From Candidatus Collierbacteria bacterium (GTDB lineage: Bacteria; Patescibacteriota; Microgenomatia; UBA1400; MFAQ01): a DNA stretch of 39,664 nt. The notes under the pieces were generated by a model. It ran no database searches. It saw nothing but the letters and a program-made list of their open reading frames with translations, and was not told the DNA's origin. The stretch lies in assembly GCA_903873735.1 (NCBI GenBank), contig CAIQPO010000094.1:1-39664 (forward strand), written 5' to 3'. Below, one piece after another: positions 14,414-39,664 of this stretch. The translations under genes and the position numbers were made by a program. Every line of letters begins with the position of its first letter. Within the stretch, counting starts at the first letter, position 1.

Positions 14414-15427
14414 ATGAAGAATACTAATGAACAGGTTTTTTACGAAGTGGCAGAGATGCCTGAATCAAATAGATACTGGCTTAGAAGACAGTTTTGGGAT
14501 GCAGCTAGTGGGAAACAGAGATCGGTTACGGTGTCATTGGAGCTGCTTTTTCAGGGGGACTGGAGTTTGAGAATTGAAGAGAGGCGATCTTCGGTTTATT
14601 GGCAACTCTTAACTCTAAACATTGATGGAGAGGAGAGAGTGGTCTTTGAGAGATTTGTGAGAGGAAAGCGGGGAGTAAAAAATGACTATATTAGTTTGGG
14701 TTATTTACCGAGATGGGTAACCAAAGAGCTTGATTTGGTACTTGAAGAGATGAGAAGAAGAAAGATGGATGTTGGTGGAAGGAGGTTTTTAAAAGATGTA
14801 TTGCACAGGATAAAGAGGGATAGAAAAGAAATTAAGTCTAAGCTGACTGCAGTAGTGGAGAAGACGGGAATTGGGGGTCTTTTCAAAATTGTGTCACAAA
14901 CTCGTGGTGACGAGAGGGGTAGCTTTAGGGAGGTGGTGAGGTTTCCTGAGGTAGAACTCTTAACAGGCTATGATTTTATCGGTAAGCAGGTAAACCACTC
15001 ACACTCGATTTATGGAACTTTAAGAGGTTTGCATGTGGAGCCTTGGGCAAAGCTGGTGACGGTGATATCAGGACTAGCTGCTTGCGTGTTTTTGGATTGC
15101 AGACCAAACTCTAAAACATTTGGGAAGACTCAAACCATTTATTTGGGTTTTGGCAAAACACCTGATGGGGAAGAAGTTAAGGGCGGAGCAATATTCGTGG
15201 AACAGGGTATAGCTAATTCATTTATTGTGCTGTCGGATAAGCTTGATTATTCTTACGTGGTCGATGACTTATGGACTCCTGGGACAGCGACCTATGCGGT
15301 GAATCCAATGGATCCAAAGCTTGAAATTCCTTGGACTAGCTGGGTGGCTGAAGAAAAAATAATCAGATCAGATAGAGATATTGCGTCTCCTGGTTTCGAT
15401 GAGTTTGTGAAGTCGCTAAGTAAATAG
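14414..15427 (+). CDS. RmlC-like sugar-nucleotide epimerase cupin with an N-terminal extension of about 150 aa and unknown function
   Basis: The C-terminal 190 aa contain GDERGSFREV, QVNHSHSIYGTLRGLHVEPWAKLV, FLDCRPNSKTFGK, VEQGIANSF and DYSYVVDDLW. Confidence 0.75.
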   Translation: MKNTNEQVFYEVAEMPESNRYWLRRQFWDAASGKQRSVTVSLELLFQGDWSLRIEERRSSVYWQLLTLNIDGEERVVFERFVRGKRGVKNDYISLGYLPRWVTKELDLVLEEMRRRKMDVGGRRFLKDVLHRIKRDRKEIKSKLTAVVEKTGIGGLFKIVSQTRGDERGSFREVVRFPEVELLTGYDFIGKQVNHSHSIYGTLRGLHVEPWAKLVTVISGLAACVFLDCRPNSKTFGKTQTIYLGFGKTPDGEEVKGGAIFVEQGIANSFIVLSDKLDYSYVVDDLWTPGTATYAVNPMDPKLEIPWTSWVAEEKIIRSDRDIASPGFDEFVKSLSK

Positions 15428-15444
15428 GGGTGTATAATTGGGTT

Positions 15445-15579
15445 AGGTTAATTGCTTTGTTTGATGTGGCTACCAACCACTAGAAGCAGGCGGTCAATGC
15501 CAGATTTGACGAATTAAGAAGGCTACCAGCAAGCAGGATGGAACCACCCGAATGGGTTCCTGCAGAGAGGTAGTTTTTT
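15445..15579 (+). ncRNA. Candidate small RNA or long 3' terminator element of unknown class
   Basis: A perfect TATAAT (15433-15438) lies upstream. There are two direct repeat modules, GGCTACCA...AAGCAGG (15468-15490 and 15521-15537). A long interrupted hairpin pairs CTACC 15523-27 with GGTAG 15569-73, GCA 15533-35 with TGC 15561-63, and GGAACC 15540-45 with GGTTCC 15555-60. It is followed directly by T6 (15574-15579). Confidence 0.4.
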
Positions 15580-15602
15580 GATTATTGATAAGTTCATTAA
15601 CT

Positions 15603-15747
15603 AGGCCTTTAGACAACATCATTTTTAACAATCGGAATACTTTTCCAGCGAAAAAGTTTCCTGATTCGCAGCTTACTGGTCGCAAGAGCGACGCCGTGCC
15701 AGTAAGCTTTACGAAACCTTGTTAAAAACGATATTGTCTTATGCCTG
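15603..15747. ncRNA. Candidate structured RNA domain (three-way junction); strand unresolved
   Basis: A 19-bp closing helix pairs 15611-15629 with 15721-15739 (17 Watson-Crick pairs) and is extended by AGGC/GCCT. It encloses a 10-bp hairpin at 15634-15661 and a 10-bp hairpin at 15670-15708 that has a nested CGC-AAGA-GCG stem. Confidence 0.45.
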
Positions 15748-15783
15748 GAGACTAATAATTAAAATTTATTGAGAATAAATAAT

Positions 15784-17550
15784 ATGGAAGATAACAAACT
15801 GTATAAGATTAGACACAGTGCGGAGCACGTGCTGACTCAAGCAATGGAGAGACTTTGGCCTGGGAAGATTGTGAAGGCAATGGGGCCAGCGATTGATGAT
15901 GGCTTTTATTTTGACTTTGATACTAATGATGGTCTGAAGATTTCGGAGAGTGATTTTCATGCGATTGAGAAGGAGATGGACAAGATTGTTAGGCAGAATT
16001 TGCCCATTACTCGACAGGAGCTCTCTGAAGAAGAGGCAAAAAAATTGTTTGAGGATAATCCGTATAAGCTTGAATGGATTGAAAAAGCAGTAGCTGAAAA
16101 AGAAGTGATTTCTGTGTATTGGACAGGTGAGCCTGGAAAGGAAGGCTCGTTTGTAGATTTGTGTGCAGGACCACATATTGAAAAGACAAGCGAGATTAAA
16201 GCTTTTAAGCTATTGTCACTTGCTGGTGCTTACTGGCATGGTGATGAAAAGAATAAGATGCTTACAAGGCTATATGGCACAGCTTATGGAAGCAAGGAAG
16301 AACTTGATCAACACATTTGGAGAATGGAGGAGGCTAAAAAGCGAGATCATAGAAAACTAGGAAGAGAGCTGGACCTCTTTACCTTTTCTGATTTAGTGGG
16401 CAGTGGCTTTCCTTTGTATACACCAAAAGGGGCAATGATTAGGAGATTGCTCAACCAGTTTGTGGAGGAAATGCAGACAGCAGAGGGATATCAGCAAGTA
16501 TGGACACCACAAGTGGCGAAGGGTGAACTGTTTAAAGCTTCTGGTCATTACGATAAATATGTAGGGGATATGTTTAGAGTGGTGAGTAATTACTCTGACG
16601 ATGAGTTTTTCCTAAAACCCATGAACTGCCCACAGCATACACAGATTTATGCTTCATCAGGGAGAAGTTATCGTGACTTACCTATAAGGATGACGGACTT
16701 TGCCATGCTTTATCGCGATGAGAAACCTGGAGAGCTTAATGGTTTGGCAAGAGTAAGATCTTTTTCTCAAGACGACTGCCATATTTTCTGCAGGGAAGAT
16801 CAGGTAGATAAAGAAATTGATACAGCTTTGCAGATGACGAAAAAAATTATGGATACTTTTGGATTGAAGTATCGATATAGATTATCCACTAGAGACAGAG
16901 AGCATCCAGAAAAATATTTAGGTAATCCAGAAACTTGGGATAGGGTAGAAATGTGGGCAGTGGAGATTATGAAGAGAAACAATATCCCTTATTACGATGG
17001 TCCTGGAGAGGCAGCTTTTTATGCTCCAAAGATGGACCTGATGGCTACCGACGCTTTGGGCAGAGAGTGGCAATTATCTACTGTACAGATTGATTATGTA
17101 CAACCAGAAAGATTTGGATTGAAGTACACAGATTCCGATGGAAGCGAAAAGACTCCAGTAATGATTCACAGAGCAATCTTGGGTTCGGCAGAGAGATTTA
17201 TGATGGTAATGCTAGAACACTTCGGAGGAGCGTTGCCATTGTGGTTGTCACCGGTACAAGTGAGAGTGCTGCCAATTTCTGATAAAACAATGGATGCTTC
17301 AAGAGAGCTAGTGAAGAGGCTTGCTGGAGCGGGGATTAGAGTGGAAATTGCAGATCAAGCCGACTCCTTAGGCAAGAAGATTAGGAATGCTGAAGCAGAG
17401 AAGATACCCTACATGGTGATAATGGGAGAGAAGGAGGTTGAGGCAAAAATGGTGGCGATTAGACAACGAGGGCAGAAGGACTTAGGCCAGGTGACTGAGG
17501 CTGATTTTGTATCAAGGATACTGACCGAAGTGGCTGAAAAGAAAATTTAG
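15784..17550 (+). CDS. thrS: Threonine--tRNA ligase lacking the N-terminal TGS domain
   Basis: It begins directly at the editing-domain IRHSAEHVL (HxxxH) motif. Class II core motifs are present (FRVVSNYSDDEFFLKPMNCP, FSQDDCHIF, MIHRAILGSAERF), followed by a C-terminal anticodon-binding domain. The track start at 15769 is TTG, so ATG 15784 is preferred. Confidence 0.92.
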   Translation: MEDNKLYKIRHSAEHVLTQAMERLWPGKIVKAMGPAIDDGFYFDFDTNDGLKISESDFHAIEKEMDKIVRQNLPITRQELSEEEAKKLFEDNPYKLEWIEKAVAEKEVISVYWTGEPGKEGSFVDLCAGPHIEKTSEIKAFKLLSLAGAYWHGDEKNKMLTRLYGTAYGSKEELDQHIWRMEEAKKRDHRKLGRELDLFTFSDLVGSGFPLYTPKGAMIRRLLNQFVEEMQTAEGYQQVWTPQVAKGELFKASGHYDKYVGDMFRVVSNYSDDEFFLKPMNCPQHTQIYASSGRSYRDLPIRMTDFAMLYRDEKPGELNGLARVRSFSQDDCHIFCREDQVDKEIDTALQMTKKIMDTFGLKYRYRLSTRDREHPEKYLGNPETWDRVEMWAVEIMKRNNIPYYDGPGEAAFYAPKMDLMATDALGREWQLSTVQIDYVQPERFGLKYTDSDGSEKTPVMIHRAILGSAERFMMVMLEHFGGALPLWLSPVQVRVLPISDKTMDASRELVKRLAGAGIRVEIADQADSLGKKIRNAEAEKIPYMVIMGEKEVEAKMVAIRQRGQKDLGQVTEADFVSRILTEVAEKKI

Positions 17551-38023: not shown

Positions 38024-38070
38024 GGTTTATTTTAACAGGGGGGATATTTTAAGCCTATTTGTGGTGTAAA

Positions 38071-39664
38071 ATCACGATATATGGCGGGATATGATTTTAA
38101 GAAAGTTGAGGATAAATGGATAAACAGATACGATGATTTCGAGCCTTACAAAGGTAAGACTTTTTCGGAGAGAGAAAAGTTTTATATGCTAACCGAGTTC
38201 CCTTATCCTTCGGGATCTGGTCTACATGTGGGTCACGCCTTTTCAATGACTGGTGCTGATGTGTATGCAAGATTTATGAGAATGAAGGGAAAGAATGTGA
38301 TGTTTCCGATGGGTTGGGATGCTTTTGGCTTGCCGACTGAAAACTATGCAATAAAAACAGGAAAGAAACCTCAAGAAGCAACCAGAGAAAATACTGAGAA
38401 CTTCAAGAAACAAATGAAGGCTTTGGGATTTTCTTTCGACTGGGATAGAGAAATAAACACTACCCTACCTGATTATTATCACTGGACACAGTGGATATTT
38501 ATTAAGCTGTTTGAGAAGGGATTGGCGGAAAAGCAGGAGATGCCAATTAATTGGTGCCCTAGCTGTAAGATTGGCCTGGCAAATGAAGAAGTAGTGGATG
38601 GTAAGTGTGAGAGATGTGGGACTGTGGCTGGAGAGAAGAAACTATCTCAATGGGTTGTAAAGATAACCAAGTACGCCGATAGATTGATTGAGGGTTTGAA
38701 AAGTACTGATTTTATAGAGAAAGTAAAAGCGGCTCAGATAAATTGGATTGATAAAAAAGTGGGAGCAAAAATTAGATTTGAGGTGGTAGGTGGCGGGCAG
38801 ATTGAGGTATTCACCACTAGACCTGACACTTTGGGTGGAGCGACTTTTTTAGTGATTTCTCCAGAACATAATTTGGTGGAAGAGCTAATGGATAGAGGTG
38901 AGGTGTCTGACTATGTGAGACAAGCTGAAAAAAAGAGTGATATTGAAAGAGCAAGGGCGGATAGAGAAAAGACAGGAGTGTTTTCCGGCAAGATGGCGAT
39001 AAATCCATTGACTGGTAGAGAGATACCGGTGTGGATTGCTGATTATGTACTTTCTGGATATGGTACTGGGGCGATAATGGCTGTGCCGAATATTGATGAG
39101 CGGGATGGAGAGATGGCAAAGAAGTATGGATTGAGTGTGGATTGGGAGTTTAAACCTGATGACAGTGCGATTGATTTAGTTGTGGAAAAGGGAATTGGGG
39201 AAAGAGCAGAGACATACCATTTAAGAGACTGGATTTTTAGTAGACAACATTATTGGGGTGAGCCTATTCCGATGGTGAATTGTGCGAAGTGTGGTTGGGT
39301 GAGTGTACCTGAAGAGCAGTTACCGGTGATGCTGCCGGAGGTGGAAAAATATCAGCCGACAGATACCGGTGAGTCACCTCTTGCTAATCTTACTGACTGG
39401 GTGAAAACAGTGTGTCCGAAGTGTGGCGGCTTGGCAAGTAGGGAGACAGATACGATGCCAAATTGGGCGGGATCTGACTGGTATTTTTTAAGATATTGTG
39501 ATCCGAAAAATGAAAGGGCGTTTGCGGGATTTGATGAGATGAAGTATTGGATGCCGGTTGATGTGTATGTGGGTGGAGATGAGCATAACACCCTGCACTT
39601 GCTCTACAGCAGATTCATCTATCAGTTTTTGTTTGATTTGGGAGTAGTGCCTAGTGATTGCCCA
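38071..39664 (+). CDS. leuS: Leucine--tRNA ligase, 3'-partial (runs off the window; absent from the supplied ORF track)
   Basis: My own translation from ATG 38071 gives MAGYDFKKVEDKWINRY...FYMLTEFPYPSGSGLHVGHAFSMTGADVYARFMRMKGKNVMFPMGWDAFGLPTENYA. This includes the HIGH-type motif and a CP1 zinc knuckle (CPSCK...CERCG). There is no in-frame stop to position 39664. Confidence 0.9.

Follow-up and report, generated by a model that had tools for sequence, protein, structure and literature searches.

A putative compact T-box-type leader and a palindromic repeat insertion upstream of the threonyl-tRNA synthetase gene in a Candidatus Collierbacteria contig

The window analyzed here is a 39,664-nt stretch of DNA (contig CAIQPO010000094.1, positions 1 to 39,664) from a Candidatus Collierbacteria bacterium, in which a structured intergenic gap (15428-15783) precedes thrS, the gene for threonyl-tRNA synthetase (ThrRS). 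The genes around the gap are all encoded on the + strand, in the order ArgRS, a class II LysRS/AsnRS-like synthetase, two RmlC-like genes, the gap, ThrRS, HisRS, an M20 peptidase, and TyrRS, and the window ThrRS has its best matches in Collierbacteria and Microgenomates metagenome-assembled genomes (72-80% identity). We consider it about 70% probable that the gap holds two independent elements (Table 1): a threonine (Thr)-specific T-box-type leader that controls thrS (module 1) and an inserted copy of a dispersed repeat (module 2).

The gap was compared with 80 thrS loci from GTDB genomes, the individual compared loci being denoted by L-numbers. A first-pass annotation of this DNA had described the gap as non-coding and made of base-paired structure, and this description is upheld by the loss of GC skew (0.05 in 15450-15749 vs 0.25-0.45 in flanking DNA) and by the folding energy of the whole gap relative to shuffled sequences (z = -4.4 on the + strand and z = -6.0 on the - strand); module 2 folded alone gives z = -6.6, and 0/200 shuffles fold as well. 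That it is the longest non-coding gap in the window is doubtful: the 793 nt at 38024-38816, which exceed the gap in length, contain only open reading frames of 56-57 amino acids without a Pfam match, and have no Rfam match. The Rfam search proposed with that annotation returned no match at gathering thresholds across the window, and ARAGORN detected neither a tRNA nor a tmRNA there. A consensus promoter and terminator scan missed both the promoter and the terminator of module 1, because the former has no -35 element and the "loop" of the latter is a nested hairpin; the sole pattern match in viral contigs was a GC-rich chance match. The two modules, described together at first as one region of RNA element(s), are not one RNA unit: module 2 is absent from the nearest relatives. 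Covariation, the lack of which was named at the outset as one refuting outcome, is present in both modules, with compensatory change in 18/33 pairs of module 1 and 31/40 pairs of module 2.

Table 1. Features of the gap upstream of thrS and of thrS itself (window positions).
Feature	Position	Strand	Remarks
TG-TATAAT -10 element	15431-15438	+	Read from sequence; no -35 seen
Ultrashort Stem I	15452-15489	+	Both helices covary
Stem I lower helix	15453-15457/15484-15488	+	Covarying
Stem I upper helix	15466-15469/15477-15480	+	Covarying; 4-5 bp in alignment
Stem I terminal 7-nt loop CUACCAA	15470-15476	+	Family form (C/U)UACCAA
Specifier ACC, then A	15472-15474	+	Only loop triplet staying synonymous, 27 leaders
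Stem III	15488-15518; helix 15493-15497/15506-15510	+	5' flank AGGCG; 3' flank GAAUUAAG
P0 outer helix CUACC/GGUAG	15523-15527/15569-15573	+	Covaries across lineages
Purine-rich internal loop AGCAA/AGAGA	Between P0 and A1	+	
A1 GCAGGA/UCCUGC	15533-15538/15558-15563	+	100% paired, compensatory changes
Putative T-box bulge UGGAACC, 7 nt	15539-15545	+	Invariant in alignment
A2 ACCC-GAAU-GGGU	15546-15557	+	100% paired, compensatory changes
U6 tract directly 3' of P0	15574-15579	+	Intrinsic-terminator signature
Module 2 repeat copy	15601-15748	+	R1 covariance model, 88.4 bits, E 2e-19
Module 2 outer stem	15601-15606/15743-15748		
Module 2 closing helix	15611-15631/15719-15739		21-nt arms, 90% complementary
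Module 2 three-way-junction core	15623-15728		
Module 2 inner hairpin arms	15630-15644/15652-15666 and 15670-15679/15699-15708		
Possible full insertion extent	15576-15772		A/T-rich arms 15576-15586/15754-15764; TTATTGA at 15582-15588 and 15766-15772
thrS (threonyl-tRNA synthetase)	15784-17550	+	Pfam tRNA_SAD, tRNA-synt_2b, HGTP_anticodon; ATG at 15784 agrees with start in relatives

BLAST finds module 1 (15431-15579, + strand) in 17 of the compared loci, on the thrS strand and with 72-88% identity, and the leader lies directly 5' of thrS in 27 loci of Collierbacteria-like Patescibacteria. Of these leaders, 19 were aligned first, and the alignment was later extended to 27; in the 19-leader alignment 92% of cells are paired, and the level of covariation is reached by 0/500 shuffles, with slid controls not close either. 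Across the 27 leaders the order from 5' to 3' is a -10 element, Stem I with its loop, a purine-rich string, Stem III, AAUUAAG, the 5' strand of the outer helix P0, a purine-rich internal loop, A1, the UGGAACC bulge, A2, the return strands of A1 and P0, and U6-7. The TATAAT noted previously at 15433-15438 was confirmed and is preceded by TG, and relatives have a TGnTAnnnT-type -10 element at the same distance 5' of the leader. Also confirmed was the interrupted hairpin (15523-15573) that runs directly into T6 (15574-15579), a terminator-like arrangement behind its own promoter; T6-T7 follows P0 in 25/27 leaders (the exceptions are L033 and L100).

The helices change between lineages in a compensatory manner. 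A1 varies from GCAGGA/UCCUGC to GCAAGA/UCUUGC, GUAGGA/UCCUAC and GUUGGA/UCCAAC, and A2 from ACCC/GGGU to GUCC/GGAC and GCCC/GGGC; compensatory changes occur in 4/5 pairs of the Stem III helix, 3' of which AAUUAAG is nearly invariant. P0 is CUACC/GGUAG in the window, CUAUC/GGUAG in L207, GGAGCU/AGCUCU in L204, GACCAC/GUGGUC in L001, GAGACC/GGUCU in L211, and GUCAC/GUGGC in L072, and it is a real helix because its strands covary between lineages. This sequence variation bears on a switch envisaged in the first-pass annotation, in which the first of two direct repeats would replace the second as the 5' arm of the terminator hairpin. The repeats themselves are present, GGCTACCA-N8-AAGCAGG at 15468-15490 and GGCTACCA-GC-AAGCAGG at 15521-15537. 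The likeness of the specifier region to the P0 strand is confined to one sub-lineage, and the 5' strand of P0 is GGAGCU, GACCAC, GAGACC or GUCAC in relatives in which the specifier loop stays ACC; the alternative-arm switch therefore falls. The GGAACC/GGUUCC pairing put forward for the same hairpin can form in the window sequence but is not part of the conserved fold, being possible in 13/19 sequences and broken in 6/19 exactly where A2 covaries, with no compensatory change. RNAalifold did pair the loop with the 3' strand, but the sequences of P0 are unrelated in L204, L201, L207, L211, and L072, and on the same grounds the ACC in P0 was rejected as a second specifier and GGUAG as an anticodon mimic; a leader peptide starting from the AUG inside the bulge was rejected because the covariation is RNA-like and the AUG is at the wrong distance from the Shine-Dalgarno-like AAGAGG.

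The T-box is the textbook example of an RNA that senses which tRNA is present and whether that tRNA is charged. The definition applied here comprises the UGGN-ACC bulge, A1/A2, and the purine flanks of Stem III (PMC7583486); UGGN pairs with the NCCA end of the tRNA and ACC stabilizes the fold, and Stem III bears the purine string 5'-RRRxG ... AA-3' (PMC7583486). The statement that no T-box core could be found in the gap is not borne out, since module 1 has a 7-nt UGGAACC bulge between the covarying helices A1 and A2, a purine-flanked Stem III, and a Thr codon in the loop of Stem I. The departures from UGGAACC are UGGGACC in L072, UGGAAUC in L033, and UGGAACA in L010. The 5' flank of Stem III is RRRxG-like in most leaders, not all, and AA stands on the 3' side. 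Stem I measures 38 nt, its terminal loop holds the specifier, and Stem III comes directly after it; the internal loop between the two helices of Stem I has conserved GA on both strands (..UGAU.. / ..GGA..) and is K-turn-like by sequence. All 27/27 Stem I loops, each 5' of thrS, carry ACC (ACU in L072) followed by A or G, and the adjoining loop bases vary; since ACC and ACU are Thr codons, the specifier matches the substrate of the downstream enzyme. The sole tRNA-Thr examined, that of the distant Patescibacteria genome L069, has U73 and a UCCA end complementary to UGGA. On this sequence-level evidence, module 1 is a T-box-class leader of ~125 nt, with a minimal architecture that current models miss and a predicted response to tRNA.

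A link to the curated T-box family exists outside the window. The Rfam T-box model RF00230 gives sub-threshold matches to the leader of thrS in L059 (44 bits, E 1.8e-6) and in L049 (30 bits), and the covariance model of the compact family matches the same L059 and L049 sites as well as a canonical T-box in L015; this bridge of similarity through L059 and L049 indirectly ties the compact leader to the curated family. The T-box in L015 (4009-4254; RF00230, 100.6 bits) has an ordinary competing terminator and lies 5' of a gene that encodes at least 570 aa (MEKIRHREQISS...), so that Collierbacteria use standard as well as compact T-boxes. In other Patescibacteria (L028, L043, L049, L050, L059, L060, and L065), thrS leaders ~100-200 nt upstream have a normal competing terminator, and several of them have a short Stem I with ACC in its terminal loop; none of the seven reaches the Rfam T-box gathering score (the best has 44 bits vs 93 needed), and T-box regulation is thus under-annotated across Patescibacteria.

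Module 1 resembles the canonical transcriptional T-box (RF00230; Bacillus tyrS, glyQS) in being the leader of an aminoacyl-tRNA synthetase gene with a gene-matching specifier followed by a purine, a UGGN-ACC bulge between A1 and A2, a purine-flanked Stem III, and a U-tract terminator before the gene. In the canonical T-box, unlike in module 1, there is a long Stem I (S-turn specifier loop, double T-loop platform) and a Stem II with IIA/B pseudoknot, the terminator competes with A1/A2, and a G.U pair closes A2; in module 1 the discriminator sits inside the terminator hairpin (P0 and U6), A2 is closed otherwise, and RF00230 is silent. The distal Stem I platform is regarded in reviews as required for transcriptional T-boxes, and Stem II as essential where Stem I is truncated (PMC7583486). 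An ultrashort Stem I whose terminal loop holds the specifier has been reported only for translational ileS T-boxes of Actinobacteria, which share with module 1 the short Stem I and have no elbow-binding platform (bioRxiv 10.1101/2023.02.28.530422). The latter, however, are translational, sequester the Shine-Dalgarno sequence, need Stem II and the pseudoknot, and are confined to ileS (PMC7583486), whereas module 1 belongs to thrS of Patescibacteria, has no Stem II, ends in a U-tract, and occurs in a host whose genes mostly have no Shine-Dalgarno sequence. A search of the literature for T-boxes in Patescibacteria or the Candidate Phyla Radiation yielded nothing relevant.

Several of these results weigh against the T-box assignment. 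The fold of module 1 alone is modest (z = -2.2, with 3/200 shuffles as good); the support for module 1 comes from covariation in relatives. An Rfam search at E <= 10 over 15300-15900 gave a single chance match (SSRC41, E 6.7) and no T-box match, and RF00230 likewise had no match at the thrS leader in 31 related loci. The long Stem I with S-turn and distal double T-loop platform and the Stem II with IIA/B pseudoknot are missing; the closing pair of A2 is A-U or G-C and not the canonical G.U sensor pair; module 1 contains no downstream strand able to re-pair with the 3' halves of A1/A2 to form a mutually exclusive terminator; and the tRNA-Thr considered above comes from a distant genome, not this one.

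Module 2 differs from the leader in its distribution. In many relatives the distance from the U-tract to the thrS ATG is 15-41 nt, and others have different structured inserts of 60-230 nt in the same place; in the closest relatives (L201 and L204-L206; ThrRS 79-80% identity) the leader is followed by 17-21 nt and the ATG. Module 2 is absent between leader and thrS from L201, L204-L206, L005, L002, L003, L006, L045, and L032, and present there in the window, L001, L004, L027, L100, and L141; in L039 it precedes thrS without a T-box leader. Excision of 15589-15772 from the window would leave a 20-nt spacer, comparable to the 17-25 nt in relatives without the insert, and the window copy is flanked by a 7-nt direct repeat, TTATTGA, which may be a duplicated target site or may belong to the A/T-rich arms. 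The stretch from ~15589/15601 to 15748/15765 would accordingly be a lineage-specific insertion of a palindromic three-way-junction repeat into the 5' untranslated region (UTR) of thrS.

The previously proposed three-way junction, with a closing helix around two hairpins and two closing-helix mismatches (C.A and A.C on the + strand), was confirmed. BLAST of module 2 against the 80 thrS loci gave no match; a structure-aware comparison showed homology of the copy in the window (+ strand) with inserts in L001, L004, L027, L039, and L053, with which it shares the loops and junctions CCWGCG, UUGCAG, CCRKGC, and UUUGCGCAAU, and the window copy has a compensatory change of UUGC/GCAA to UUCG/CGAA. Metagenome contigs, scanned first with a pattern and then with the covariance model R1, yielded 30 further copies at 23 loci, two copies in each of 7. 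In the module 2 alignment 94% of cells are paired. Full-length copies are ~180 nt and are bounded by the terminal inverted repeat GAAATTATTT ... AAATAATTTC; the sequence of the outer stem differs among copies, and its self-complementarity is kept. Copies are placed before, between or after genes that are unrelated to each other (DprA, TrmD, Rho, NDK, MreB, LysM, an ATP-grasp protein, a CopA/DsbD operon, ThrRS, TyrRS), in both orientations, several being antisense. The argument for transcription from the minus strand, which had been made on the strength of two wobbles, fails at the level of the family: the copies occur in both orientations, the changes are almost all from Watson-Crick to Watson-Crick pairs, and there is no wobble bias beyond one column (G-U 26 vs A-C 11, with 18/26 G-U in that column). 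A small RNA (sRNA) read from the minus strand is thus not supported, and the pattern fits selection on the complementarity of both strands or an orientation-independent role. Upstream of the element in L108, L096, and L118, at ~25-70 nt, is a promoter-like motif, ACTC(A/G)ATAATCAC-N6-8-TAGTATAG, with DprA downstream twice and an unknown 592-aa protein once; this motif could mark a regulon or belong to an extended form of the element.

Repeats of the ERIC/IRU, REP/BIME and Correia types are imperfect intergenic palindromes of 100-200 nt that are often transcribed, occur in either orientation, and have compensatory arms. Module 2 is like them in its presence or absence at orthologous sites, its occurrence in either orientation, and its arms that are kept complementary; it is unlike them in having no sequence likeness, a conserved three-way-junction core, a Patescibacteria host, and no transposase partner identified. 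We regard it as comparable to REP, ERIC or miniature inverted-repeat transposable element (MITE)-like elements, probably selfish or neutral at this locus and at most modulating mRNA structure. Against this stand the single copy in the 39.7-kb window, the absence of a consistent target-site duplication in the seven copy pairs compared, the absence of a transposase among the 20 flanking proteins scanned, the co-orientation of most copies with neighboring genes, and the strong conservation of the junction nucleotides, which together with the orientation bias could mean a function at the RNA level. A search of the literature for MITEs in Patescibacteria gave nothing relevant.

Such a function could be that of a cis-acting 5' UTR element (in processing, stability, translation, or ligand or protein binding) or of an independent sRNA, possibly from the minus strand, and we think it unlikely. 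Beyond the kept junction and loop nucleotides and the pairs that covary across genomes, it would account for the mostly intergenic placement in the direction of the neighbors, for the location of the first six copies, all in the 5' UTR of aminoacyl-tRNA synthetase genes, and for the slightly better fold of the minus strand in most copies. The neighboring genes, however, have no common function; L159 (two copies), L136, and L119 have copies antisense to their operon, and in L083 and L123 copies lie where two genes converge; the loci most closely related to this one do not have the element; wobbles are nearly absent, with no G-U vs A-C asymmetry that marks a strand; and the copies come with neither a conserved promoter nor a conserved terminator. 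The metagenome contexts refute the idea, suggested by those first six copies, of a regulator restricted to aminoacyl-tRNA synthetase genes. Module 2 was also considered as a hammerhead ribozyme and rejected by eye (CUGAUUC, not CUGANGA, and GAAA apart from the closing helix; Rfam is silent), and as an integron attC site, for which its core motifs are unfit; a target-site duplication was considered and not consistently found.

Other structured inserts occur between the U-tract and the thrS ATG. Those of 'type A' (L023 2898-3032, L008 3828-3918, L031 3806-3950, L022 57-219, and L017 1-100) belong to another sub-lineage, are unrelated to module 2, and consist of a long irregular hairpin with AAAATCGTTTGGTTCGAAGCCCGCC...ACGATTTT; a third element, in L026 (3855-3981), has an architecture like that of module 2 and was missed by model R1. 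The position appears to be a hot spot for inserts of this kind.

From the architecture, the covariation, the match of codon and gene, the promoter, and the U-tract of module 1, all of which are observed, we infer the binding of tRNA and the switching of the compact leader. The anticodon of tRNA-Thr would pair with ACC in the terminal loop of the ultrashort Stem I, and the 3' UCCA of uncharged tRNA-Thr would pair with UGGA of the bulge, aided by Stem III and its purine flanks. With the sensing hairpin built into the terminator hairpin, there can be no competition of the usual kind between antiterminator and terminator; the default fold would be the terminator itself, in which P0 encloses the sensing hairpin and abuts the U-tract. 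Uncharged tRNA would keep P0 from closing in time and so allow read-through into thrS. One conjectural route is that Stem III and its purines can dock on the bulge with its bound tRNA only while the 5' strand of P0, which is the tether joining Stem III to A1, is unpaired. Read literally, tRNA binding would stabilize the terminator hairpin, which counts against this scheme and leaves its switching step a conjecture. Transcriptional attenuation is favored over translational control because the leader comes with a promoter of its own, 25/27 leaders retain the U-tract, inserts of 60-230 nt are tolerated between U-tract and ATG, and Shine-Dalgarno sequences are few. It is conceivable, and we put it forward tentatively, that the compact leader switches by a principle undescribed for T-boxes, with the discriminator nested in the terminator and tRNA blocking P0, and that it acts on transcription through an ultrashort Stem I alone, having neither Stem II nor a platform for the tRNA elbow, which at ~125 nt would make it the smallest natural T-box, and, separately, that the module 2 family is a new class of functional RNA.

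Module 1 might instead be derived from a T-box and act as a constitutive attenuator, as an mRNA-stabilizing 5' structure, or at the level of translation or RNA decay, and thus not be a tRNA-dependent terminator switch. This would agree with the want of an alternative fold that excludes the terminator, with the degenerate A2 of L010, with relatives that are leaderless (L208/L209), and with L033, where the same core occurs with no U-tract and with a Shine-Dalgarno sequence able to pair with the leader, suggesting other read-outs. We judge it improbable, however, since divergent lineages show (nearly) no change in the specifier, in the bulge, or in the flanks of Stem III where their helices change compensatorily, a pattern to be expected only under continuing selection for contacts with tRNA, and since the U-tract is so widely retained.

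The E. coli thrS operator is a structured thrS leader that mimics the tRNA anticodon arm and binds ThrRS; module 1, likewise a structured thrS leader, displays a codon and a CCA-binding bulge and is thus suited to bind tRNA. That module 1 is such an operator, to which its position directly 5' of thrS would be suited, or the plain terminator of the RmlC-like operon, as its hairpin and U-tract 3' of those genes might suggest, is highly improbable, given that the loop carries the ACC codon and not the Thr anticodon (NGU), which makes it complementary to tRNA-Thr and no mimic, and that the same leader follows different genes in relatives (LysRS in L204, for example, but a DUF5660 gene in L211), comes with a conserved -10 element of its own, and is conserved in sequence far above the needs of a plain terminator.

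If the T-box-type reading is true, the compact thrS leader has retained nothing but the specifier loop, Stem III, and the discriminator, would test the generalizations on the platform, Stem II, and the ileS-only class, and would offer a minimal scaffold for structural and synthetic work. Annotation based on Rfam, and TBDB, which uses the same model, misses T-box regulation across a large uncultured radiation. The module 2 family is a strongly covarying structured repeat of small Patescibacteria genomes that is absent from Rfam (nothing at the gathering threshold).

Among other thrS loci, L033 (3512-3665) is a member of the compact family with an 8-bp P0, no U-tract, and a duplicated UUUGGUA; its strong Shine-Dalgarno sequence, AAGGGGGG, is able to pair with the 5' end of the leader, and it may be a translational version of the compact T-box. 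In L208/L209 (1479-1501) thrS begins 21 nt after a LysRS-like gene with no leader (ThrRS 73-74% identity), so that the T-box was lost or never gained in parts of the clade. In L007 (3913-3945), L015 (~170-225), and L210 (~1465-1500), short hairpins followed by (C/G)(C/G)AATGAC(G/A)A stand just 5' of thrS, and ThrRS begins MSKKLD. The public ThrRS gene call in L201 (3001-4977; P0002, 658 aa) starts ~70 codons too far 5', running through the leader, an artefact of the unrecognized leader. In the window itself most genes have no Shine-Dalgarno sequence, and in several a TAGAAT, TATAAT or TAGTAT box lies ~5-12 nt 5' of the ATG, e.g., upstream of 3594, 6281, 7556, 9757, and 30984, which suggests that the mRNAs are leaderless or have very short leaders.

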